A DNA stretch of 39,236 nt, taken from the IMG/VR virus record IMGVR_UViG_2718218135_000005, one strand, 5' to 3'. Positions 1 through 39,236 of the stretch are shown piece by piece (within the stretch, counting starts at the first letter, position 1; each line of letters starts with the position of its first letter). The stretch is from a virus (Duplodnaviria > Heunggongvirae > Uroviricota > Caudoviricetes). A program made the position numbers and the translations under genes. The notes beneath the pieces were generated by a model that had not been told where the DNA came from, did not search any database, and saw only the letters and a list, made by a program, of their open reading frames with translations.

Positions 1-603
1 TTAGACTTCAATCGATTCAGAGATCTCTAACGCATCATCGACTTCAATGCCCAGATAACGTACTGTGCTTTCCAGTTTCTTATGGCCTAACAGAAGTTGG
101 ATCACCCTGAGATTCTTAGTTTTCTTGTAAATCAGGTAAGGTTTTGTTCTTCTCAAGGAATGTGTACTGTAAAGCGAATCTTCGAGACCAAGTTTTGCTA
201 CCCACCTATGAAAAATTCGGTTGTATTGCCGGGTTGATATGTGTTGGTTAGTACCGACCCGAGATCGGAACAAATAGTCTTTACTGCGTAAATTGCCAAG
301 CTTTATCAATGCAGAAACAGCTTCTCTTGTCCCTTTGGTTATCTCAAATTGGACAGGGCTGCCGGTTTTCTGTTGTAGAACCGTAGCTCTGCTTGAAACA
401 GAGCTACCATATGCAACATCAGATACTTTGAGTTTGACTAGATCACAGCCTCGAAGCTTACTGTCCAAGGCCATGTTGAACAGAGCTAAATCGCGCGTTT
501 TACCTTCCAGTTCAAGTCGGATTCGGATACCCCAGATATGAGATATCTGAAGTGGTCTTTTTTGGCCTATGATACGGTCTTTGTTCCACGGTGACGTGTT
601 CAT
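1..603 (-). CDS. short tyrosine-type site-specific recombinase (phage-integrase family, catalytic domain only)
   Basis: ORF-track 202-aa product (TTG at 609 or in-frame ATG at 603); C-terminal HSLRRT ... LLGHKKLESTVRY matches the H-x-x-R ... LGH ... Y pattern of tyrosine recombinases; stop codon at window positions 1-3. Confidence 0.7.
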   Translation of the reverse strand: MNTSPWNKDRIIGQKRPLQISHIWGIRIRLELEGKTRDLALFNMALDSKLRGCDLVKLKVSDVAYGSSVSSRATVLQQKTGSPVQFEITKGTREAVSALIKLGNLRSKDYLFRSRVGTNQHISTRQYNRIFHRWVAKLGLEDSLYSTHSLRRTKPYLIYKKTKNLRVIQLLLGHKKLESTVRYLGIEVDDALEISESIEV

Positions 604-639
604 ACTCAAATCTCCTGCAATGTGGGAGATTTGAGTATG
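601..639. repeat. perfect 15-bp inverted repeat with 9-nt spacer, spanning the recombinase start codon and SD
   Basis: catactcaaatctcc (601-615) and ggagatttgagtatg (625-639) are exact reverse complements. Confidence 0.6.
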
Positions 640-998
640 GTTGTCCTTATGAGCGAGGCGCGGAAGCTCACTTTAGGGTAATCTAATTCACATGTCAGAG
701 GATTTATAAAAAGAGAATAGTGCAGATTTTAGGGATACTTACACTTGCTATGGCATACTTTTTGGGACCCCATCAGTTTAGGGATCTGAATCGCCACAGC
801 TTTGGTAGGCACCTGCTTTATGGTCACGTGCACCCGAAAATCCTGCGGGTACACATGGGTCACGAAAAGTACGAGTCTACAGAAGTTAATTTACGGTTTT
901 TTGCGCTCGATGTGGCTGCCAGCTACCAAGTCCAGTTTACACTGGATACAACTAACGCGCTGTAGCAACTGCGTGGTGGAAGCTGATTAAAGGAGATA

Positions 999-2102
999 AT
1001 GATGTTCGATGTTGACGATACTGCACCCGATACTCCCGACCCCCGTGAACTCAGTCAGGATGTGCAGGCGCTGATCAACAATGGTCTGGATTTTCTGGAT
1101 AAAGCCCGTGAAGAGTTGGAGGCCTCGAAGCCGAAGTTCTCCGTCGTCAGTTTCTGGACTGCGGTCGAGATTTTACTGAAAGTTCCGCTGGCGCACGAAC
1201 ACTGGTCGTTGGTCTGCAGCCCGAAAAAGCCAATAAAAAAGCAGGCTTACCTAGCCGGTGATTTTCAGTCGGTGACCTACGAAGAAACCCGTGAAAGGCT
1301 TAAGGACGTACTTGAAAGCCCCCTAGACAGAGAAACGGACAGTGCTTTTGATAAGGTCAGAAAGCACCGCAACCGCGTAGTTCATTTCTACCACCCCACT
1401 TTCACCGAGGCTGAACAACGTCAAATACTCAAAGAACAAGCTGACGCCTGGTTTGCCCTGAACCGGTTATTAAGGGATGAATGGAAAGTTATCTTCGGTG
1501 TCAAACATAATTGGAAGCTGGCTTTCGGTGAAACTCGTCTGATTAGGGGAAACAAATTTTATGCCGAGGTGCGGTTTAAACAGGTTAAGCCTGAACTCGA
1601 GCAGCTCTCTGAAAAGAATATTCAAATCGGTAACTGCAATGAGTGCCATCAGCATGCGACGGTAACAGGGACTGAAACGACCGGTAATGAAAACCGTAAG
1701 CTTGAAGTTACGCGGTGTAAGGTTTGCACCAGTGCTGTAAGGCAAATTACCCTAGTTTGTCCAGACTGCGAAATACCTCAATTGCTACCTGAGGGAGATA
1801 GTGATTTTGAATGCGAACACTGCGACTACACTTCGGATAGGTATAAACTGCTGGATGAGGAGTTGTTCCACAGTGTGGATGAACAGCTACTCTCCGTATT
1901 TCCTGCTGGATGTACCAATTGCATGACTCCTGAAAGCGTATGTAAATTTGGAGACGGCTATCTTTGCACTCAGTGTTTCATCTATTACACCGAGCTTCAT
2001 GTATGTGGTTGTTGCGGTCACCTGAGCGATAGCGTTCCTGAACTGAGCCATATCCGAGGATGTGAATTTTGTGATGGTGACCAACGTTATTTTGATGACT
2101 GA
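999..2102 (+). CDS. hypothetical Cys-rich protein: helical N-terminal domain with R-x4-H motif, C-terminal array of eight CxxC pairs (predicted zinc ribbons)
   Basis: 367-aa ORF with SD aggag at 991-995; RNRVVH motif in KVRKHRNRVVHFYHP; CNEC, CKVC, CPDC, CEHC, CTNC, CTQC, CGCC, CEFC in the C-terminal half. Function not recognised. Confidence 0.65.
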   Translation: MMFDVDDTAPDTPDPRELSQDVQALINNGLDFLDKAREELEASKPKFSVVSFWTAVEILLKVPLAHEHWSLVCSPKKPIKKQAYLAGDFQSVTYEETRERLKDVLESPLDRETDSAFDKVRKHRNRVVHFYHPTFTEAEQRQILKEQADAWFALNRLLRDEWKVIFGVKHNWKLAFGETRLIRGNKFYAEVRFKQVKPELEQLSEKNIQIGNCNECHQHATVTGTETTGNENRKLEVTRCKVCTSAVRQITLVCPDCEIPQLLPEGDSDFECEHCDYTSDRYKLLDEELFHSVDEQLLSVFPAGCTNCMTPESVCKFGDGYLCTQCFIYYTELHVCGCCGHLSDSVPELSHIRGCEFCDGDQRYFDD

Positions 2103-2484
2103 ATTACCATACATAATCTAGGCTCTTCAGGGATGGGTTGGACAGTCCGCTCCTGGCACATAGCAGTCCTAGAGACACTGGCGTAAAGCCATGGAGGATC
2201 GGTGGGAGGAGGTAAAAATCCTCTCATGCAAAAAATACGCAAAATCGATAACAGTTGGAAATCATTCAATACTCGCACTATCGGAAGTTCACCAGCCAGT
2301 CGTAGCACGTTCTTGCATACGACGTGGCTACGGTCTCAACTCCGTCCCCCACCAATCATGATTGGGCAGTACCAGTACAGCACTAGTAAAAACTGGAAAT
2401 AAGCAGTCTCAGCAAAATACCGGCCAGACGGTGAGAAGACAAAAAAGATACGCAAAGTAACCGCGGCCCTTAGTGACATGAAAT

Positions 2485-2504
2485 CCCGCTATACGGGCTT
2501 TTTT
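2485..2504 (+). terminator. weak terminator-like hairpin plus T6 run
   Basis: cccg-ctata-cggg followed by cttttttgt; only a 4-bp GC stem. Confidence 0.3.
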
Positions 2505-2579
2505 GTATCTGCACACGATTGATTATTAGGTCCGTATAGCTAATAGTGGTCTTAACCTACATATAGAATCAGAGACTTT

Positions 2580-3275
2580 ATGAAAAAGGAAATACTCAAG
2601 GCTCTTTGCCCTACATGCGGTGGGTTACGTAACTGCACTGTGCATGGGAAGCTAACCACTAGCTGGGAGGATTCCCAATATCCAGTTTATGGGTACCATT
2701 ACCATCACCTACTCCAATGCAATGGCTGTGATACTGTCTTCTATCACCACAACGAACACTTCAGTGAGCATACTACCCACGAATATCGTGATGGTGAATT
2801 TGTAGAAACGCCTATAGATATGATCACTACCTATCCTGCCGCTGAAACATTTCAAGCTCCGATATGGTTATCCAAGCTTGAATCAGTTGATCGTCAGCTC
2901 TTTCAAATATTTAATGAAATGTATTCTTCATATACTTCTGACCATTTCATTCTTTCGTCCATCGGTTTACGGACGATTTTTGATCGAACTGCTGAACTGT
3001 TACAAATTCACCCCGGTTTGCCGCTTGGTGAAAAAGTTGAAAAATTAAAACAAGATGGAGTCATAGGCGACACTGAGGCATGCGTTATATCTTCAGTAAT
3101 TGATGCAGGAAACGCCGCCGCACATCGCAGTTGGAGCCCGAATAAAAGTGAGTTCGAACAAATGCTAGAAGCTATAGAAAGTTTTGTCCAAAGAACTATC
3201 TTGGGCAAAAAATCACTTGAACATATAACCAAACAACTCCCACCTCGGGTTACAAGACCTAAAAATAGTGCATAA
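2580..3275 (+). CDS. hypothetical protein: N-terminal CxxC...CxxC zinc ribbon plus helical C-terminal domain (possibly DUF4145/HEPN-like, from memory)
   Basis: 231-aa ORF; CPTCGG...CNGCD near N-terminus, His-rich stretch YHYHH, C-terminal VIDAGNAAAHRSW motif; AT-rich by eye. Confidence 0.65.
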   Translation: MKKEILKALCPTCGGLRNCTVHGKLTTSWEDSQYPVYGYHYHHLLQCNGCDTVFYHHNEHFSEHTTHEYRDGEFVETPIDMITTYPAAETFQAPIWLSKLESVDRQLFQIFNEMYSSYTSDHFILSSIGLRTIFDRTAELLQIHPGLPLGEKVEKLKQDGVIGDTEACVISSVIDAGNAAAHRSWSPNKSEFEQMLEAIESFVQRTILGKKSLEHITKQLPPRVTRPKNSA

Positions 3276-3301
3276 TCCGCGATCATCAATGTGGCGTAAG
3301 G

Positions 3302-3858
3302 CTATGGTTTACTTGCTACAGGGAATTTTTTATACACCGTTGAAATACCCAGATCATAAATCAGTGCGACTTGCTGCTGATATATTCCCGATTCAATCAA
3401 CCTGCCAGCCTGCCCCCATTGTTCTACTGTCAGCTTTGGCTTTCGCCCACCGTTCCTCCCTTCTTGTCGTGCTGCGGCAAAGCCGCCCTAGTACGTTCGA
3501 CAATAAACTCTCGCTCCATTTCAGCCAGGGCACCCATCACATGAAAGAAAAAACGCCCTATCGGCGTGCTGGTATCAATAGCATCCGTCAGGCTGCGAAA
3601 ATTAACGCCACGTTCGCGCAACTCCTCAACCAGAATGACCAGATGCCGCATACTACCCCCCAGCCGATCCAGCTTCCAGACAACCAGAGTGTCACCTGCC
3701 GATAATGTCCTGAGCAGTTTTTTCAGTCCCGGCCTTTCGGACTTTGTACCGCTTATCTTGTCTTCAAAAATCAGCTCGCATCCTGCACAGTTCAGCGCAT
3801 TACGTTGTAGATCTGTGTTCTGGTCATTTGTTGATACGCGTACATAGCCAATAAGCAT
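3302..3858 (-). pseudogene. Pin/Gin/Hin-family serine DNA invertase, interrupted by a single-base frameshift
   Basis: N-terminal MLIGYVRVSTNDQNTDLQRNAL...VVWKLDRLG...GRFFFHVMGALAEMERE is a serine-recombinase catalytic domain and stops at 3430; the HTH tail (GGRKPKLTVEQWGQAGRLIESGIYQQQVALIYDLGISTVYKKFPVAS) reads in another frame over 3302-3457. Confidence 0.7.
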
Positions 3859-3884
3859 GGTAGATCCCTCTGACAAAAGCAGGA

Positions 3885-4436
3885 ATGATGCCATCTGCTC
3901 GTTATTTCTGCATTTTCATAAACGTTGGTTTGGGAGAAGGTTCGGCATTACCCGTTGGCGTGCCTGTTCCGTGGCCTTCCACCACTCCGCCAACAGGCTG
4001 GCTGAAATGCAACGGTGCGGCTTTTTCTGCTGAAGCATACCCGGAACTGGCAAAGGCTTATCCGACAAATAAATTGCCTGATTTACGTGGTGAGTTTATT
4101 CGTGGCTGGGATGACGGGCGTGGAGTGGATAGCGGTCGTACTTTATTAACGAATCAAGAGCATGCAGTAATTTCTCATAATCATGGAATACCTACAAAAG
4201 TGGGGTCAGTTACTAATATCCCGTATGGAATAGAACAGGTTCTATCTGATGAAACCATTTTTTCATCAGCAAAAACAGTTGGTGTGGATTACTGGTCTAA
4301 CAGTGAAAGAGTTTTTACTTATACCACTGGTGGAAGAAATGGTGCTGAATCAGTGAGTTCACCTGATGCCTCCTCTTTAATTAAAGAAACCAGACCACGG
4401 AACCTGGCATTTGCGTATATCGTGAGGGCTGCATAA
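3885..4436 (+). CDS. alternative tail-fibre C-terminal (variable) domain, unfused and promoterless in this orientation
   Basis: ORF runs through the left crossover site; product has GWLKCNGAAFSAEAYPELAKAYP, a tail-collar-type fibre tip motif; the annotated ATG is probably not a true start. Confidence 0.6.
   Translation: MMPSARYFCIFINVGLGEGSALPVGVPVPWPSTTPPTGWLKCNGAAFSAEAYPELAKAYPTNKLPDLRGEFIRGWDDGRGVDSGRTLLTNQEHAVISHNHGIPTKVGSVTNIPYGIEQVLSDETIFSSAKTVGVDYWSNSERVFTYTTGGRNGAESVSSPDASSLIKETRPRNLAFAYIVRAA
3913..3938. repeat. invertase crossover site (gix/pix/hix-like), left end of invertible segment
   Basis: TTTTCATAAACGTTGGTTTGGGAGAA fits the 26-bp TTxTCxxAAACC-NN-GGTTTxxGAxAA pattern of Gin/Hin/Pin sites. 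Confidence 0.55.
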
Positions 4437-5044
4437 TGGATTACGCCGTATTAAATAACGAATTTATCGCCACCCAGGCAGGAAATATTACTGTTTATAA
4501 CTATGATGGTGAAACGCGTGAATATATTTCTACATCAACTGAATATCTCGCTGTCGGCGTCGGTATTCCGGCATGTTCTTGTTTGGATGCACCAGGTACA
4601 CATAAAGCTGGTTATGCAATCTGTCGCTCTGTAGATTTAAATTCATGGGAATATGTGCCAGATCATCGCGGTGAAATCGTCTATAGCACCGAAACAGGAG
4701 AATCGAAAGAAATCACAGCTCCGGGTGATTATCCTGAAAATACAACCACTATCGCCCCGTTAACGCCATACGATGAATGGAATGGTGAGAAATGGGTGAC
4801 AGATACCGAGGCACAGCACGGCGCAGCAGTAGATGCAGCAGAAGCACAGCGCCAGTCGCTGATTGATACTGCAATGTCCTCCATCAGTCTGATTCAACTG
4901 AAATTACAGGCCGGACGGAAGCTGACGCAGGCAGAAACAACCCGCCTTAACGCTGTGCTGGATTACATTGACGCGGTGACGGCAACAGATACCAGCACCG
5001 CGCCGGATGTTATCTGGCCTGAACTGCCGGAGACTGCACAATAA
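4436..5044 (+). CDS. tail fibre assembly protein (Tfa) for the alternative fibre tip
   Basis: 202-aa product ending ...DTSTAPDVIWPELPETAQ, the conserved Tfa C-terminus; start overlaps the upstream stop (taATGg). Confidence 0.8.
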   Translation: MDYAVLNNEFIATQAGNITVYNYDGETREYISTSTEYLAVGVGIPACSCLDAPGTHKAGYAICRSVDLNSWEYVPDHRGEIVYSTETGESKEITAPGDYPENTTTIAPLTPYDEWNGEKWVTDTEAQHGAAVDAAEAQRQSLIDTAMSSISLIQLKLQAGRKLTQAETTRLNAVLDYIDAVTATDTSTAPDVIWPELPETAQ

Positions 5045-5187
5045 ACTCACCATCAATATATAAATCCCCCTGCTGTGTGTCAGCAGGGCATTCTTTCCAT
5101 ATTAATGATGGATGGAATCTTCCTTCAGGATTAATTTCCGTTATCTCTTCTACTTTATTTTCTTCAATTCTTGCCCACATATGAACC

Positions 5188-6111
5188 TCACCAGTAAATA
5201 TAAACTGCGCCATCTGCTCCGGCACCCGACTGACCCGTTGATGAATTAGGACATAATCCAGCACCGCCACCTCCAGGCCCAACTGCTGATACCGCTTTTC
5301 CGTTAGCTGTATCTCTGAATGAACCTGCTCCTCCGGGGCCACCACCAGAACCACCATTACCAGCTCCCGATGCGGCAGAAGCAATGGAACCTGGAGAACC
5401 AGGCCCAAGCGATGTATTAATTGTTCCCCCGACACCAACTGCGCCTAACCCTCCGGAAGGCTGGCCTCCGCTATAGCCTCCGGAAGCTGACATGTAAGTC
5501 CCGAAACTGCTCGAGCCACCATTTTTACCGTTTACAGAAATACCAGACACAGGCGCACCACCGGCACCAACCGTAATCGAAACACTGTTTATACCAGTTA
5601 AATCTACCAGCCCCTCAGCAACTCCGCCCCCACCACCTCCTCCGCCACATGTAACGGCTGAAGCGGTTGTTGAACCTATCCCTCCTGACGCACCGCCACC
5701 AATAACTTTGACGTAACATTTTCTTCCTTTGCGCAACTCTTCAGGAACAGTCCAGTTTGTTACTCCAGCCGTTGTGAAGGCAACCAGATTTCTGAACCCA
5801 AATGAACCTTCTCCCAAACCAAGGTTTTCGAGAGCTGTTTTCACCGTGCCATCCGATTTGATATCGCCAAACGGATTCTTGCGGCTTAACAGCAGCGCAC
5901 GAAGCGCGGTAAGCAACTGGTCGTGCCGCGCCTTCTCCAGGCTGGCACCGGATGCCTCCACCACGCTGCAGAGTTCTTCCTGCAACATATCAAAGTAGTC
6001 ATCATCCAGATCGGTGGCAGGTGTGCCGGTCTGGGGGTTACCACGAGTAAAACCGTTCTTACCCGCGCCGAACTTATCCTTCTGCGCGGTTTTAGTGTCT
6101 ATGCGATGCAT
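5188..6111 (-). CDS. tail fibre protein (constant N-terminus plus currently expressed variable tip)
   Basis: 307-aa Gly-rich product; reading frame crosses the right crossover site at 5809-5834; follows the baseplate genes. Confidence 0.8.
5809..5834. repeat. invertase crossover site, right end of invertible segment (inside tail-fibre gene)
   Basis: TTCTCCCAAACCAAGGTTTTCGAGAG; its reverse complement shares TTGGTTTGGGAGAA with the 3913-3938 site. Confidence 0.55.
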
Positions 6112-6114
6112 GGA

Positions 6115-6699
6115 TTACTCCGGATATTTAAAAATTACGTAGGTATGCGACGGGCAGAGTTTGTTAAGCACACACTCGACAACGGTGTCGCCCCATATAC
6201 GCAGCGCGGAATCACAGGGATCGCCACATGTCATCCAGGTGGTGTTGGTGGCGGCTGGCATGTTGATCTGCCAGTAATACCGCCATTCCGGCGCATTCAC
6301 CGCGTCAGTACAGGCCGATGAGCAGGTGAAGGTGCTTTTGTCGTATCGCGTGATGGTGGCATCTGGCCTGCCCAGGGCAGCAAGCTGTGCAAGATAAAAA
6401 TCCTCGTTGATGCCGCCCGCCAGGTTAACCTTCGCATCCAGCCGTTGCTGACGCTGGCGAAGGGTCTGCGTTCCCGCCGGAATACATTCATCCGGCAGAC
6501 CGCACAGACGCTCCCAGCGGTTTATCAGTTCAGTGGTGGTGCGCGGATCCAGCTCCCGCATCAGGGCATCCGCACGCTGATGAACGCGGGTTAATGACGG
6601 TGCCGCACCGGCAATCGCCGGATCTCTGGCTGACCACGCCGGACCGGGTGGCAACAGTGCCGACAACAGACGGATGTAATCATCGTTTGTCACGTCCAT
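6115..6699 (-). CDS. tail/baseplate protein, e14 YmfQ-like (DUF2313, Mu gp48 position)
   Basis: 194-aa product; position between baseplate J-like gene and tail fibre; resemblance recalled from memory. Confidence 0.6.
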
Positions 6700-7748
6700 G
6701 AAATCGTCCCCAGAACCGCCAGTTCATTTTTCGCAATGGAGATATTGTCTGCCGGTGCAAGCAACTGATGGCTATATTCCCCGTTCGCACCGGAAATCGC
6801 CTCACTGATACGCGATACCTTCAGTTCTCCCTGCGGATAACCATCACGCAGAAGAAACGAACGCAACTCCGCGGTGATGGCGGCTCGTATTTCTGGTGTG
6901 TCCGGCGTCACGCGGATATGAAAATCCACCGTATGTGCCACCGGCCTGAATACATACAAATCAGAGCCTGCCACCGGGGCCAGTGGCACGATATGTTGTC
7001 TTGCTGCCGTTTCCGTTGATTCTTCCGGAATGGGATTAATCAGGTCACTGCTGGCAATCATCACACCGACAGTTCCCGTTCCCATCCAGTGACGGTATGT
7101 CCATGCGCGGGTAATGCCGGGCACTTCTTTAGCCCAGACGACATAGTCCCCGTCAGCCCCGCCCTGAGGCGTCCAGTAATACCGCTCAATGACGCGGGCG
7201 CGCCACGTTTCCAGCTCTTCAGTATCAAATCCGCCTGTAAGGGTGTCAGCCACACCGGAAGACGGCAGACCATTCACCGGCGTGACCAGGATTAATGCCG
7301 TACCGTCGTCAGCGTTACCGACCGCACCTGCACTTGAGCAGGCGATCGGCACGCGCAGGACACCACCGGAGCTGATTGCATCGTCAGTTGTCGTGTACTG
7401 CACCAGGTCATCGCGCTGAATAACACTCCCGGCAGTCACCTTCAGGCCATCGCTGACACCTTCCCAGCGCATATACCCGCTGGCAACCGTGGCCCCCTTG
7501 CGCGGACACCGTTTCATCGCAGCATGTCGCGCCAGCCAGGACTCATCGCACAGGTCAGGCAGCATATTCATTGCCAGATAATCGATGTAACCGTAGACCG
7601 TATGCAGCGCCGCCGCATACACCTTTGCCCGCACGTCTTCATCCATGCGCCGGAGCGTGTCGCTGACGTCCAGCCTGGCGAATAAATCGTTACGGAGCAT
7701 ACTGATATTTTCTGCCAGCGTCGGGCGCTGAAATTCACTGTCCGCCAT
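6690..7748 (-). CDS. baseplate J-like protein (Mu gp47 position)
   Basis: 352-aa product; synteny in a Mu-like tail module. Confidence 0.65.
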
Positions 7749-8163
7749 GCGTTATCGCACTCCACAGATCATCAAAAGAAATCATTACTGGTCCATCACG
7801 ACGCCAGAGGGTGATACTGTTACCCAGCTCATTAATCCCGGTGCGGCGGATATCCAGATCAATACGGGACACCACGCCGTCATCAGTCATCCATTGCAGG
7901 CATTCGCGGATATACCCCCTTACCGTCTGCACCAGCTGATTGGTCAGTTTGCTGCGCTGAAGCAACCACAGTCGGGAGCCGTAACGGTCATTCTGTACCG
8001 CAGGCCAGGTATCCCCCCACCATCCCATCGGGACGTCGGCATTGTCATCAGGCTCCGCCCGCCGCCAGGTGAACAGGGAAATCACCACGGCGCGGGTCAG
8101 CGGATCCAGCGGTGCGCTGGCGCAGGTGCGTTTACCGTTCACCGTCAGCCACAGTTCCATCAT
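7735..8163 (-). CDS. baseplate protein (Mu gp46-like)
   Basis: 142-aa product; synteny. Confidence 0.55.
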   Translation of the reverse strand: MMELWLTVNGKRTCASAPLDPLTRAVVISLFTWRRAEPDDNADVPMGWWGDTWPAVQNDRYGSRLWLLQRSKLTNQLVQTVRGYIRECLQWMTDDGVVSRIDLDIRRTGINELGNSITLWRRDGPVMISFDDLWSAITHGGQ

Positions 8164-8708
8164 GCCTCCATCGCTTTATCAGGTTTGTCGGTGTTACTGC
8201 CCTGACCGTTCTCTCTGTGACGATGCCCGTTATAGGCAAGCCGCATCGCTGACATGGTGGTGCCGCCGGAGTCGCACAGGTCTTTCACCTGTCCGGTCAC
8301 TTCCAGATCCATTTCAAAACGTGCTTCAGGTGCATTGCGAAACGTGATCGTTTTCCCTGCACCGTCCACCACGATCCCCTCCCGGGTCAGCGTCACAGAC
8401 TGCCCCTGATCGTCATAGACAGCCACCTCACCCGTTTGCAGCCCTTTCAGGCGGTAGCGCCGGTCCGACACCGTAACAACCACCGCATGAGAACGGTCGC
8501 CATCCGGAAACAACACCACCGCTTCCGCACCGCTGTTTGCCCTTGCGGTAAAACCGTAGGGTTCAAGATGTTCAACCCCGGCTTTGGGTTCACCGGCAAT
8601 CAGGGACACATCCACGGTCTGACATTTCGTGGCGGCACTGATGCTTTTCACCACTGCCCGCCCAATCAGGCCGAGAAGTTGTCGCTGCATGGCTTCAATC
8701 GTCCTCAT
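8160..8708 (-). CDS. baseplate assembly/spike protein (gpV / Mu gp45-like)
   Basis: 182-aa product; synteny. Confidence 0.6.
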   Translation of the reverse strand: MRTIEAMQRQLLGLIGRAVVKSISAATKCQTVDVSLIAGEPKAGVEHLEPYGFTARANSGAEAVVLFPDGDRSHAVVVTVSDRRYRLKGLQTGEVAVYDDQGQSVTLTREGIVVDGAGKTITFRNAPEARFEMDLEVTGQVKDLCDSGGTTMSAMRLAYNGHRHRENGQGSNTDKPDKAMEA

Positions 8709-9787
8709 CAGAACGGGTCCTCCTGTACTCTGGCTTTTTTCTTTTTCCGCGCGCCGGGGGCTTCGGGTTCAGGCAGATAAGCATCAGGCGGGCCGACACG
8801 GATTTCCGTCAGGGTGCCGTTCTGGTCCTGAGTAAACGTGACTTCCGAGACAAGCAGTTCGGTATTGTCGAAACCACAGACCGGATCGAAGACAATCACC
8901 CGCTGGTTGGGCTGCCACAGCGTACCGTTACCCTGTCGCCAGCCCTGCACCACATAGGTGGTTTCATCCGTCCGCGCCGCCCGTTTTCGGGCTTCAAAGT
9001 CAGCACGCGCAATACAGCCAGCCCCCGTGGCCTGCCCTGTCTGCCTGATATACATCGGACGGTAACGGGCAATAAATGCGTCCTCTGTGCGGGCCCGCAG
9101 CGCGGTGGTGGTGGCCTCACCGAAATCATCGTCGTTTCCGGCACGCTGCCCCGCCACCTGGTAAACAGAAAACCGCTCCCGGATACTCTTCTCCGTATCA
9201 CAGGAAAGGATGTTTTCCCCAAGTACCAGCGCGGTATGTGCCCGCGTTGAGCCAATACCGCCAATCACCAGCCTGCCGTGCGGGTCGTCATAAGCCAGCG
9301 CCTGCTGCTGACCGAGTATTTTGTTAATCACCTCGATCACCGTTTCACCGTGATCAGGCTGGACATCAGGAATAACACCCGACGGCGCACCGCTGTTCAC
9401 CACCTCAATGCCGAAGGGCGCAGCAAGCGCCTGCGCAATCTGTACCAGTGATCGTCCGTTAAACTGTGTCGGTTCAGCTACACAATCAATCAGGTCAGCG
9501 GTCAGACTGCGTCCGGCAATACCGGTGCTGACCGAACGGGCATCGTAACGAACGGGCGTCGCCTCCACCCAGCCGGTGATCACCAGCTCATCACCAATCA
9601 GCACCTCCACTTTTGAACCGTTTTTAATGCGCGGCTGAAGCGTGGTGATACCCTCATCACCCGGCCACTGGCGGGTGATCTCCACACTGAAATCCCGCGC
9701 CAGTCGTTCAACACCGGCACCGATGCGCACCGATGTCCAGCCATTCCACTCCCGGCCATTTACCCGTAGCGTGACATTGTCGTTCAT
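8708..9787 (-). CDS. tail protein (Mu P / late control D-like baseplate hub)
   Basis: 359-aa product; synteny between DNA-circulation and baseplate genes. Confidence 0.6.
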   Translation of the reverse strand: MNDNVTLRVNGREWNGWTSVRIGAGVERLARDFSVEITRQWPGDEGITTLQPRIKNGSKVEVLIGDELVITGWVEATPVRYDARSVSTGIAGRSLTADLIDCVAEPTQFNGRSLVQIAQALAAPFGIEVVNSGAPSGVIPDVQPDHGETVIEVINKILGQQQALAYDDPHGRLVIGGIGSTRAHTALVLGENILSCDTEKSIRERFSVYQVAGQRAGNDDDFGEATTTALRARTEDAFIARYRPMYIRQTGQATGAGCIARADFEARKRAARTDETTYVVQGWRQGNGTLWQPNQRVIVFDPVCGFDNTELLVSEVTFTQDQNGTLTEIRVGPPDAYLPEPEAPGARKKKKARVQEDPF

Positions 9788-36388: not shown

Positions 36389-36738
36389 TGGAGCCATACA
36401 GCCTCACACTCGATGAGGCCTGTCATTTTCTCAAGATATCCAGACCGACTGCCATTAACTGGATACGCACAGGGCGTCTTCAGGCAACACGCAAAGATCC
36501 CACTAAGAATAAATCTCCTTACCTCACAACACGACAAGCCTGCATTGCGGCTCTTCAGTCTCCGCTGCATACTGTCCAGGTGAGCGCGGGTGATGGCATA
36601 ACAGAGGAAAGAAAATGTCACTCTTCCGCAGAGGTGAAATATGGTACGCCAGTTTCACATTGCCGAACGGTAAAAGATTTAAACAGTCTCTTGGAACAAA
36701 GGACAAAAGGCAGGCGACAGAACTCCATGACAAGCTAA
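36388..36738 (+). CDS. xis: excisionase (HTH)
   Basis: ATG at 36388 after aagagg; [29 protein letters not shown] is an excisionase-type HTH; 3' end overlaps int, true stop uncertain. Confidence 0.55.
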
Positions 36739-37778
36739 AGGCTGAAGCATGGCGGGTCAGCAAACTTGGTGAAATACCTGATATAACGTTCGAGGAAGCG
36801 TGTGTCAGGTGGCTTGAAGAGAAAGCACATAAAAAATCACTGGACGATGACAAAAGCCGGATCGGATTCTGGCTTCAACATTTCGCAGGAATGCAACTAA
36901 GAGACATTACTGAATCAAAAATTTATTCAGCAATGCAGAAAATGACGAACCGGCGTCATGAGGAAAACTGGAAACTCAGGGCAGAAGCATGCAGAAAAAA
37001 AGGGAAACCTGTTCCAGAATACACGCCAAAACCAGCGTCCGTTGCAACGAAGGCTACGCATCTTTCATTTATAAAGGCCCTACTAAGAGCCGCAGAGCGT
37101 GAATGGAAAATGCTGGATAAGGCACCAATTATTAAAGTGCCCCAACCAAAGAATAAACGGATCCGCTGGCTGGAGCCCCATGAAGCACAAAGGCTGATTG
37201 ATGAATGTCCGGAGCCATTAAAGTCTGTTGTTGAATTTGCACTGGCAACAGGCCTAAGACGCTCGAACATCATCAACCTTGAATGGCAACAAATAGATAT
37301 GCAGCGCCGGGTGGCATGGATAAACCCGGAAGAGAGTAAATCAAACCGCGCAATTGGCGTTGCGCTGAATGATACTGCATGTCGCGTATTGAAAAAACAA
37401 ATCGGGAATCATCACCGTTGGGTATTTGTGTACAAGGAAAGCTGTACCAAACCAGACGGAACGAAAGCGCCAACAGTCAGAAAGATGCGGTATGACGCAA
37501 ACACAGCCTGGAAAGCGGCGCTGAGACGGGCTGGTATTGATGATTTCAGATTTCACGACTTGAGACACACATGGGCAAGTTGGCTGGTTCAAGCCGGAGT
37601 CCCGTTGTCAGTGTTACAGGAAATGGGAGGCTGGGAGTCTATCGAAATGGTTCGTCGATATGCTCACCTTGCACCTAATCACCTTACCGAACATGCACGG
37701 CAAATAGACTCGATCCTAAACCCATCGGTCCCAAATTTGTCCCAGTCAAAAAATAAGGAAGGTACTAATGATGTGTAA
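36615..37778 (+). CDS. int: tyrosine integrase (lambda-family)
   Basis: 387-aa product with C-terminal catalytic motifs ([16 protein letters not shown] ... VRRYAHL); ends 14 bp from the 3' end of tRNA-Thr. Confidence 0.9.
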
Positions 37779-37792
37779 CTTATTGATTTAAA

Positions 37793-37868
37793 TGGTGCCG
37801 ATAATAGGAGTCGAACCTACGACCTTCGCATTACGAATGCGCTGCTCTACCAACTGAGCTATATCGGC
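37793..37868 (-). tRNA. thrW: tRNA-Thr (anticodon CGU)
   Basis: Reverse complement reads GCCGATATAGCTCAGTTGGTAGAGCAGCGCATTCGTAATGCGAAGGTCGTAGGTTCGACTCCTATTATCGGCACCA, with cloverleaf, anticodon CGT and CCA end. Confidence 0.9.
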
Positions 37869-37982
37869 CCTGAAAGGACATGTTCACGAACGTGAATCAC
37901 GGTGGACAAGGTTAAAACTAACCGGGCGATGCGTCAATGGCCTTGTGAATCAAATGGCTACTTTTGCATCACCCGGTTTTAT

Positions 37983-39236
37983 TTACGCACGAATGGTGTA
38001 ATCACCAATGCCGATCCACTTGTAAGTGGTCAGTGCTTCCAGCCCCATTGGGCCACGCGCGTGGAGTTTTTGTGTGCTTACCGCCACTTCCGCACCCAGA
38101 CCAAACTGGCCGCCGTCGGTAAAACGCGTAGAGGCGTTAACGTAAACAGCGGACGAATCCACTTCGTTAACAAAACGCTGGGCGTTGCGCATATCGCGGG
38201 TCAGGATCGCATCGGAGTGTTGTGTGCCGTGTTCACGAATATGGGCGATGGCATCGTCAAGATCGCTGACGATTTTGACGTTCAAATCTAATGACAGAAA
38301 CTCATCGTCATACTCTTCGGCTTTAACAGCAACCACCTTCGCAGGGCCTGCCTGCAACTGCGCCAGTGCAGCTGCATCTGCGTGTAATGTCACGCCGCTT
38401 TCCGCCATTTGTTTGCTTAATGCGGGCAGGAAGCTATCGGCGATGTTTTTATTCACCAGCAACGTTTCAACCGTATTACATGTGCTCGGACGCTGAGTTT
38501 TCGCGTTGACGATCACTTTTAATGCTTCAGCGATCTCTACACTTTCATCAACGTAAATATGGCATACGCCTATACCACCTGTGATCACCGGGATTGTCGA
38601 CTGTTCACGGCACAGTTTATGCAAACCAGCGCCACCACGCGGGATCAGCATGTCGATGTATTTATCCATACGCAGCATTTCACTGACCAGCGCACGGTCA
38701 GGATTATCAATCGCCTGCACGGCACCCGCCGGTAAGCCGCAGGATTTCAGGGCGTCCTGAATCACCGCCACCGTTGCAGCGTTAGTGCGACACGTTTCTT
38801 TGCCACCGCGCAGGATCACCGCATTACCGGTTTTCAGGCACAGCGAAGCGACATCAACCGTCACGTTCGGGCGCGCTTCATAAATCACGCCAATAACCCC
38901 CAGCGGTACGCGACGACGCTCAAGACGCAGGCCGCTGTCCAGTACGCTGCCATCGATTACCTGCCCCACCGGATCGGCGAGGTTACACACCTGGCGCACA
39001 TCATCGGCAATGCCTTTCAGCCGTGCGGGCGTCAGTGCCAGACGGTCAAGCATCGCTTCGCCAAGGCCATTGGCACGCGCGTCAGCAACATCCTGGGCGT
39101 TAGCGTTGAGGATGATTTCGCTTTGTGCTTCCAGTTCATCGGCGATTTTTTCCAGCACGCGATTTTTTTCGCGGCTGGAGAGTTGCGCTAATTTATACGA
39201 GGCTTGCTTCGCGGCAATGCCCATTTGTTCCAGCAT
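37983..39236 (-). CDS. proA: gamma-glutamyl phosphate reductase
   Basis: 417-aa product starting [28 protein letters not shown] matches E. coli ProA as recalled; start codon at the last bases of the window. Confidence 0.95.

Follow-up and report, generated by a model that had tools for sequence, protein, structure and literature searches.

A probable e14-type tail-fibre inversion switch beside a decayed pin gene in a contractile-tailed prophage

In the 39,236-nt stretch of DNA analyzed here (the window), the region around the tail-fibre gene is very probably an allele of the e14 P segment, that is, a site-specific inversion switch of the Pin/Gin family (Din) that serves the prophage tail fibre. 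The e14-type tail-fibre switch is itself a known system of the classical Pin/Gin type. In the mechanism we propose, the 1.9-kb segment between two 26-bp crossover sites holds two back-to-back cassettes, one composed of a glycine-rich tip and a 56-aa ORF and the other of a Collar tip and a Tfa gene. Once bound at both sites, and presumably assisted by Fis at an enhancer within the 5' end of pin, a Pin-type serine invertase would cleave the DNA at the central TT and exchange the strands, so that the segment flips and the other tip becomes fused in frame; virions would thus carry one of two receptor-binding tips according to orientation. In its present state the switch has the glycine-rich tip on, with sites and presumed enhancer region intact and the resident pin gene dead, and flipping now requires a Pin paralogue encoded at another place in the host genome, in the absence of which the switch is locked.

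The left crossover site (3913-3938, no strand assigned, TTTTCATAAACG-TT-GGTTTGGGAGAA) adjoins pin and has its central TT at 3925-3926. The right site (5809-5834, TTCTCCCAAACC-AA-GGTTTTCGAGAG) lies within the tail-fibre gene with its central AA at 5821-5822 (TT on the minus strand) and reads CTCTCGAAAACC-TT-GGTTTGGGAGAA as its reverse complement. Both 26-bp sites have a 12-2-12 layout, form imperfect dyads and share the same asymmetric central dinucleotide (TT/AA), while lying in inverted orientation to each other. The left site and the reverse complement of the right site match at 21 of 26 positions, and over the inner half-site plus central TT (14 nt) there is no difference between them; the mutual inversion of the two sites and their common 14-bp half-site, both claimed in a preliminary description of this DNA, hold in coordinates and in alignment. 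An exact 19-nt core (3925-3943, the reverse complement of 5804-5822) sits within inverted-repeat arms of 24 nt (3920-3943 and 5804-5827, 96% complementary), and with up to 2 mismatches allowed this 19-mer is found exactly twice in the window, with 0 occurrences over 100 dinucleotide-preserving shuffles.

Alignment to known Gin/Pin sites, the check proposed in the preliminary description, gave identity at 26/26 positions with both P-segment sites of E. coli K-12 e14 (left site with L002 6606-6631, right site with L002 4779-4804). The published e14 crossover core TTGGTTTGGGAGAAGG (PMC12529663) is present at the left and right sites, the right site holding CCTTCTCCCAAACCAA, and experiments have demonstrated that PinE, PinQ and PinR invert the e14 segment at this core (PMC12529663). 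A search for a third crossover site, as in Min-type systems or shufflons, found no further AAACCNNGGTTT-type site near the segment. A shufflon-like or Min-type (p15B) multi-site cluster was rejected, since it requires more than two sites and only two of Din type occur in or near the segment.

We also considered that the inverted repeat might be a by-product of a common peptide motif (NLGLGEGS) encoded on opposite strands, in which case it would serve as a joint for homologous recombination and be no recombinase site. The 19 identical nt do indeed read LGLGEGS in each of the two genes, and domain junctions throughout the Gly_rich_2 family show this motif again. However, the left outer half-site lies upstream of all fibre coding sequence, yet it has the Din half-site pattern and is the same as in e14; in addition both sites keep the 12-2-12 arrangement with its asymmetric central TT, pin lies ~55 bp from the left site, and it is at exactly this core that inversion was demonstrated in e14. 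An origin of the repeat in the peptide motif is thus extremely improbable.

Returning to the inversion switch, the right site lies, as previously described, within the tail-fibre ORF (5188-6111, minus strand, 307 aa), where the central TT forms nt 2-3 of codon Leu97. Its constant 5' part (5821-6111, minus strand, aa 1-97) lies beyond the invertible segment and carries the start codon and a StfP-type N-terminus with a predicted baseplate-attachment domain. This part shows 97% DNA identity to K-12 stfP/ymfQ and matches PHROG tail-fibre N-terminal families with E down to 1e-53, while the predicted model of the fibre N-terminus matches chain 9ki1_j of the phage Mu baseplate structure (probability 1.0, 89 columns). 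Now fused to the constant part is tip A, the glycine-rich C-terminal domain (5188-5820, minus strand, aa 98-307), which by virtue of this fusion is the expressed tip in the present orientation, whereas the Collar tip is silent. The alternative tip, tip B (3927-4436, plus strand), is a Collar-domain fibre C-terminus that starts at the left site and is followed by its own Tfa, or tail-fibre assembly, gene (4436-5044, plus strand; tfaE in the annotation of relatives), again in agreement with the preliminary description. That inversion would fuse the constant N-terminus to this tip in frame had been calculated by hand; inverting 3927-5820 in silico yields an uninterrupted, in-frame ORF of 266 aa with 0 stops, in which the constant part runs into the Collar-domain tip and is followed by Tfa. 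The 266-aa fusion is identical at 264/267 positions to WP_106479300.1, an annotated tail-fibre protein of E. coli 2017.03.02CC. The two tests by which the preliminary description could have been refuted, the frame of the fusion and the alignment of the sites, both support it.

The two tips belong to different domain families. Tip A matches Pfam PF21722 (Gly_rich_2, E 7e-10, residues 113-307), and in the predicted model this domain has a pLDDT of 93-98 and matches the cyanophage Pam3 fibre, Bxb1 tail-tip proteins and 245 viral proteins; homologues of tip A are positioned immediately after gp47/gp48-like baseplate genes. The human ALK/LTK glycine-rich domain resembles tip A only weakly (E 6e-3 to 0.1), and this likeness was given no weight. 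Tip B matches Pfam PF07484 (Collar, E 2e-15) and the PHROG tail collar fibre family (E 2e-68), and its Tfa matches Pfam PF02413 (Caudo_TAP, E 6e-32) and PHROG 105 (E 2.5e-98). An NCBIfam search of tip A, tip B, Tfa and YmfQ returned no match. Homology and position suggest a receptor-binding role for both tips, and by analogy with related systems each tip may have its own receptor specificity and the switch an effect on host range.

The accessory genes also differ between the cassettes. While the Collar tip is accompanied by a Caudo_TAP Tfa, the glycine-rich tip has only a conserved small ORF of 56 aa (5010-5180, minus strand) directly downstream, for which PGAP gives a version of 67 aa starting at 5213. 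Searches of Pfam, NCBIfam, PHROGs and PADLOC gave no match to this ORF. It is conserved behind a Gly_rich_2 fibre gene both in a Citrobacter prophage and in a related contig, with the motif INPEGRFHPSL. By its position it is a candidate accessory protein or chaperone of the glycine-rich tip, and the two together may constitute an undescribed tip/chaperone pair. Between the two convergent cassettes, and overlapping the 3' part of the small ORF, lies a GC-rich hairpin (5068-5088, CCCTGCTGTGTGTCAGCAGGG) that is terminator-like on both strands and may act as a transcription terminator.

Both orientations occur naturally among strains, a comparative counterpart of the split reads proposed in the preliminary description. 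Of 5426 complete E. coli genomes, 24 have the constant part running directly into the glycine-rich tip and 12 have it running directly into the Collar tip. In strain 90-9281 the segment 3920-5827 is flipped relative to both flanks, which this strain has in common with the window. Strain DETEC-P61 is 100% identical up to 3941, at the left site, and homology resumes from 5816, with other cassettes in between. As a rule, PGAP annotation in RefSeq breaks the StfP::glycine-rich fibre up into two entries, 'partial stfP' and 'glycine-rich domain-containing protein', so that both the intact gene and the invertible architecture are hidden in public annotation.

The pin gene itself (3302-3858, minus strand) is a pseudogene of a Pin-type serine DNA invertase (Pfam Resolvase, PF00239, E 8e-47), a status overlooked in the preliminary description. 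It shows 90% identity to K-12 PinE over the catalytic domain (tblastn) and has a mosaic 3' half relative to K-12 e14 pin. Two lesions were read from alignments to K-12 PinE, Gin and the intact allele WP_114747531. Firstly, one G is missing at gene nt 375, shifting the frame after about codon 125 and detaching the C-terminal helix-turn-helix (HTH) DNA-binding domain. Secondly, C202G changes Arg68 to Gly in the DRLGR motif. In the alignment G68 occupies the position of Gin R68 and of gamma-delta resolvase R71, and Tn3 R71 mutants lose recombination (PMC2794168); pin R68 is equivalent to Tn3 R71, an essential catalytic arginine. A sequencing error as the source of the frameshift was ruled out by the same deletion in several independent complete genomes and by PGAP, which flags the identical pin gene of DETEC-P61 as frameshifted. 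We had also entertained an ancient origin of the frameshifted allele from the ~4% divergence between copies; this was discarded since the differences are confined to nt 21-306, the frameshifted copies representing a mosaic allele whose deletion-bearing 3' halves are identical.

With its own pin dead through frameshift and Arg68Gly, the prophage is unable to flip the segment by itself. A further serine recombinase able to act in cis was sought in the window and none was found, the broken pin being the only one. The 202-aa tyrosine recombinase (1-609) was rejected as the flipping enzyme, since its family is not the one that acts on 12-2-12 Din sites, it is 3.3 kb distant and its scores fall well short of the cut-offs for tyrosine-type invertases. 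The description of the segment as invertible is therefore right for the DNA substrate, in which sites and frames are intact, and wrong for autonomous flipping; the intact adjacent serine invertase of an autonomous Din system is missing, and the status of the segment as a substrate of the family is unaffected. Flipping thus needs a Pin-type invertase in trans, failing which the segment is locked on the glycine-rich tip. Trans-complementation by a Pin paralogue in the present host is plausible: PinQ and PinR flip the e14 segment in trans (PMC12529663), and Din-family enzymes can substitute for one another (discussion of PMC12529663; PMC3798978). The cis-acting enhancer may likewise be preserved. 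In the Gin and Hin systems the enhancer is a portion of the invertase gene itself, situated in its 5' part at a distance of ~100 bp from the closest site (Kahmann 1985; Johnson & Simon 1985; both via PMC3798978). The corresponding first 200 nt of pin (3659-3858, minus strand), where a Fis-dependent enhancer would be expected, match K-12 pinE at 199/200 positions.

It is quite possible, if somewhat short of probable, that the locus is by now a fully frozen relic, a segment that once flipped and that nothing inverts in the present host, which would then make the glycine-rich fibre only. This amounts to taking the locked branch of our explanation as the actual current state. The two independent disabling lesions in pin point in this direction, as do the presence of the frameshifted allele in many strains and the decay seen in related elements (pin is truncated in that of JNEC-KY177, and one crossover site of 90-9281 has suffered a 1-nt deletion). 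Moreover, a K-12 pinE deletion left the P segment locked despite the presence of PinQ and PinR, although the presumed enhancer was also deleted (PMC12529663), so that trans-flipping at native expression levels may be weak. Against complete freezing stand the perfect agreement of both sites with functional e14 sites, the near-identity of the pin 5' region to K-12 and the trans activity of PinQ and PinR, together with the abundance of possible helpers: pin-like DNA occurs in about half of complete E. coli genomes, and DETEC-P61, the closest relative with the same dead pin allele, has a second pin-like locus.

The element as a whole seems to be a complete prophage with a contractile tail and baseplate genes like those of Mu, and it adjoins a tRNA-Thr gene (thrW). 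Long ORFs for integrase, repressor, terminase, portal, capsid, sheath and tape measure are intact, a Mu Gp48 domain was matched (Pfam) and homologues of gp44-48 lie upstream. The gene order runs ymfQ, stf constant part, tip A and accessory gene, then tfa and tip B on the opposite strand, then pin. A second attachment repeat, sought in 1-3400 as a copy of the int/tRNA-Thr/proA end (36401-39236), gave no match, and the left prophage boundary is accordingly not located.

This gene content bears on the role of the silent tip. A short leader ORF that opens with an ATG at 3885 (beginning MMPSARYFCIFINVGLGEGS) continues in frame across the left site into tip B, and K-12 has it conserved as well. The pin-proximal tip could be translated from this leader into a free protein that keeps other phages from adsorbing, and host defence would then be the main role of the locus. 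There is precedent in K-12 e14 StfE2 (PMC12529663), and defence-type cargo (HEC-08) lies next to pin. Yet the full virion gene set, unlike the e14 remnant of K-12, makes a structural fibre role the simple reading; no promoter-like site was detected by a scan of the plus strand ahead of 3885, and overlap of the leader with the pin promoter region would account for the conservation of the leader. We regard a primarily defensive role as unlikely. It is similarly unlikely that an induced Pin paralogue of another prophage or of the host controls flipping (as PinQ can act on e14) while the product of the 3885 leader serves as a free receptor blocker; if true, the locus would double as a recombinase-triggered superinfection-exclusion device.

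Since the switch is of the classical Pin/Gin type, with sites identical to those of e14, its recognition matters little beyond correct annotation. It does illustrate clearly how the DNA substrate of a switch can stay conserved when its recombinase has decayed, a point of relevance to the recent proposal of invertase action across prophages, and it adds Gly_rich_2 to the exchangeable, presumably receptor-binding tips of enterobacterial myovirus prophages.

Among known systems the nearest is the e14 P segment of E. coli K-12 (ymfQ-stfP-tfaP-tfaE-stfE-pinE), a comparison proposed at the outset. In addition to the identity of each crossover site, the two share the same gene order, 97% DNA identity over the stf constant part and ymfQ, the nearly invariant first 200 nt of pin, and a variable cargo gene after pin (mcrA in K-12). 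They differ in the expressed cassette (Gly_rich_2 tip and 56-aa ORF here versus StfP-C and TfaP in K-12), in segment length (1898 bp versus 1797 bp), in the element that carries them (a full-length prophage at thrW versus a remnant at icd) and in pin, which here, unlike in K-12, is a pseudogene with a mosaic 3' half. In K-12 cultures both P-segment orientations coexist (PMC4272514).

The phage Mu G segment (Gin; S/U versus S'/U') shares the overall logic, with the constant 5' part of the fibre gene outside the segment, two cassettes inside it (each a tip with an assembly gene in Mu; here a Collar tip with Tfa and a glycine-rich tip with a candidate accessory ORF), 26-bp sites of 12-2-12 design, a directly adjoining invertase gene and Mu-type baseplate genes upstream. 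However, the sites match Mu gix at only 17-18 of 26 positions and have a central TT in place of TC, the constant part is ~97 aa as compared with ~170 aa in Mu S, and the tips, of Gly_rich_2 and Collar/HK97 type, are unrelated to S and S'. An assignment to the Mu G segment proper, as a gix/Gin orthologue, was therefore rejected. Hin/hix of Salmonella flagellar phase variation and Cin/cix of phage P1 belong to the same recombinase family and have the same 26-bp site design, and their dependence on Fis and an enhancer is presumably shared, but Hin flips a promoter and not, as in the tail-fibre segment, a coding 3' end. Finally, the same cassette pair is found at 96% identity in P2-like E. coli prophages (e.g. 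of strains 2452 and 2196) and in phage pro483, where the cassettes are bounded at the same crossover sites and adjoin a Pin-family invertase; these elements differ in having a long P2 gpH-type N-terminus, a P2-type baseplate and an intact invertase.

The segment is bounded by two inverted 26-bp crossover sites with a common half-site, as the preliminary description had it, one at 3913-3938 (TTTTCATAAACG-TT-GGTTTGGGAGAA) and the other at 5809-5834 (read as the reverse complement, CTCTCGAAAACC-TT-GGTTTGGGAGAA). While 21 of 26 positions match overall, the inner half-site and the central TT are identical in both sites, and the exact identity is 19 nt long. With up to 2 mismatches this 19-mer occurs twice in the window, once per strand, and 0 times in 100 shuffles; a repeat finder returned a single long inverted pair in 3200-6300 (arms 3920-3943 and 5804-5827, 24 nt, 96% complementary). 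A search near the segment found no further AAACCNNGGTTT-type site, and there is therefore one invertible segment only, of 1898 bp (3925-5822).

The proposed gene arrangement, a tail-fibre gene crossing the right site and an alternative tip leading from the left site into its own Tfa gene, is confirmed, as is the in-frame fusion predicted on inversion. The tail-fibre ORF (6111-5188, minus strand, 307 aa), adjacent to a Mu gp48/YmfQ-like baseplate gene (6115-6699, minus), spans the right site, with the central TT as nucleotides 2-3 of codon Leu97. Residues 1-97 form the constant part and residues 98-307 a glycine-rich domain (PF21722, Gly_rich_2); a 56-aa ORF (5180-5010, minus) comes after it. 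Leading away from the left site on the plus strand are a Collar-domain C-terminus (PF07484, 3927-4436) and a Caudo_TAP assembly gene (4436-5044), while the pin-type serine recombinase gene (3858-3302, minus) lies just beyond. Inversion of 3927-5820 in silico yields an open frame of 266 aa with no stop (junction ...|ALPVGVPVPW...). Between the two convergent cassettes, at their junction, is a GC-rich hairpin (5068-5088, CCCTGCTG-TGTGT-CAGCAGGG) with a perfect 8-bp stem, terminator-like on both strands yet contained in the 3' end of that 56-aa ORF.

The predicted inversion product, with the constant part contiguous with the Collar tip, is found in 12 of 5426 complete E. coli genomes, and contiguity with the glycine-rich tip in 24. 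The in-silico fusion is identical at 264 of 267 positions to the annotated tail-fibre protein WP_106479300.1 (strain 2017.03.02CC). In E. coli O128:H27 90-9281 the counterpart of window 3920-5827 (96% identity) is oriented opposite to both flanks (pin and stf-constant/ymfQ), which makes it a clean natural inversion. Window 1-3941 is 100% identical in DETEC-P61, which then carries different cassettes until homology resumes from 5816, so that its break points relative to the window are the two crossover sites. The same cassette pair is present in two P2-like prophages, with its limits at the same crossover sites. These comparisons are evidence that the segment is a real unit of inversion and exchange. 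In 90-9281 the crossover site within the fibre gene (locus L005, 2994-3019) is one G short (GG instead of GGG), and therefore the fusion frame is shifted and the site altered. The switch in this strain is disabled at the site with pinE intact, whereas the window presents the reverse, intact sites and a broken pin.

The window pin was compared with K-12 PinE, Mu Gin and other alleles. One G is missing at gene nucleotide 375, shifting the frame after about codon 125 and cutting off the helix-turn-helix (HTH) DNA-binding domain, which is still open in the other frame. This deletion is common to several complete genomes, flagged 'frameshifted' by PGAP; an intact copy of the allele is WP_114747531 (185 aa, strain QA-1986 630). 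A second lesion, C202G, converts DRLGR to DRLGG (Arg68Gly) and among the alleles compared occurs in the window and DETEC-P61 only. In alignment, the counterparts of residue 68 are R68 in Gin and R71 in gamma-delta resolvase, and R71 mutants of Tn3 resolvase lose recombination, with the cleavage rate reduced roughly 1000-fold (PMC2794168). The pseudogene (3302-3858, minus) is a mosaic, its first 200 nt being essentially K-12 pinE (1 mismatch) and its 3' half coming from a different allele (in the HTH part, 60% of the amino acids are identical to PinE); where other strains carry the frameshifted allele, all differences from the window fall within nt 21-306. Gin/Hin-type enhancers are located in the region equivalent to pin nt 1-200, which is identical to K-12 pinE at 199/200 positions, and both crossover sites are intact; the cis elements of the switch thus appear conserved. 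A search of the window found no other encoded serine recombinase. Complementation of the broken pin in trans is plausible; a second pin-like locus is present in DETEC-P61, and 2683 of 5426 genomes carry pin-like DNA. As an added result, the switch cannot drive itself here: unless it is flipped in trans, the segment stays locked on the glycine-rich tip.

A high-confidence structural model of the glycine-rich domain (pLDDT 93-98) matches the cyanophage Pam3 fibre (E 2e-8), Bxb1 tail-tip proteins and, weakly, the ALK/LTK glycine-rich domain, along with 245 viral proteins annotated as glycine-rich domain, tail fibre or minor tail proteins. Homologues of the domain, encoded directly 3' of gp47/gp48-type baseplate genes, have variable N-termini, several joined at the site-encoded NLGLG motif. 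The constant part would fit a docking domain, since the N-terminus of the model finds a match among the chains of the Mu baseplate structure. The 56-aa ORF (5010-5180, minus) is conserved: a Citrobacter prophage and a related contig likewise have it downstream of their Gly_rich_2 gene (L012 5961-6119; L011 5955-6119), the E. coli and Citrobacter versions having the motif INPEGRFHPSL...DGEF in common. Searches of Pfam, NCBIfam, PHROGs and PADLOC gave no match to it, and it is absent downstream of the distant metagenomic homologue L014. The ORF may encode a chaperone dedicated to the glycine-rich tip. In DNA, the Collar tip and Tfa module shares about 92-93% identity with HK97 and HK106 stf/tfa, and it is present in P2-like phages too. 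In RefSeq, PGAP labels the intact StfP::glycine-rich fibre an 'incomplete stfP pseudogene' at three counterparts of window 5188-6111 (L001 5718-6616, L003 5998-6896, L009 3501-4424), and either omits the glycine-rich part or calls it as an additional CDS that overlaps in that very frame. When translated, all three genomes show one uninterrupted 307-aa ORF.

The window is E. coli DNA, and its prophage is apparently complete (integrase, CI-like repressor, terminase, portal, capsid, sheath, tape measure, Mu-type baseplate). It adjoins tRNA-Thr(CGU) (thrW locus, 37793-37868, minus) and proA (37983-39236, minus); the tRNA lies between proA and the phage integrase gene (36615-37778, plus), which places the prophage at thrW. 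A search of window 1-3400 gave no second att repeat, and the left boundary is therefore outside or unrecognised. The slot beyond pin holds cargo, here a 367-aa Cys-rich protein (999-2102, plus; PADLOC candidate defence family HEC-08, E 1e-173; labelled 'hsdR' by PGAP) followed by a DUF4145 protein (2580-3275, plus); a small tyrosine recombinase is encoded at 1-609 (minus). K-12 has mcrA in this slot, UTAK-5 a HipA-kinase and DUF3037, 90-9281 and 2017.03.02CC a LEM-3-like GIY-YIG protein, and JNEC-KY177 DUF262. Because relatives carry other genes there, the slot looks like a variable defence hotspot. An 81-bp internal capsid-gene fragment (2234-2314), marked by PGAP in the identical DETEC-P61 sequence, is a scar left in the cargo region by an earlier phage.

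Finally, assignment to the e14 P-segment type is upheld. Kirigo et al. (NAR 2025, PMC12529663) demonstrated inversion of the K-12 segment at TTGGTTTGGGAGAAGG / CCTTCTCCCAAACCAA, a core also present in the window; PinE, PinQ and PinR can each invert it, and deletion of pinE locks it (PMC12529663). Both orientations occur side by side in K-12 cultures (Goldberg et al., PMC4272514). The cassette pair itself is not described in the literature found, though it is carried by dozens of sequenced genomes. Judging by this switch family, inversion would have host-range consequences. The region belongs to a known system, the e14-type P segment: K-12 e14, which sits at icd whereas the window prophage is at thrW, has the same layout (ymfQ-stfP-tfaP-tfaE-stfE-pinE), and alignment to known Pin/Gin sites gives 26/26 identity of its two sites to both window sites and 17-18/26 for Mu gix.
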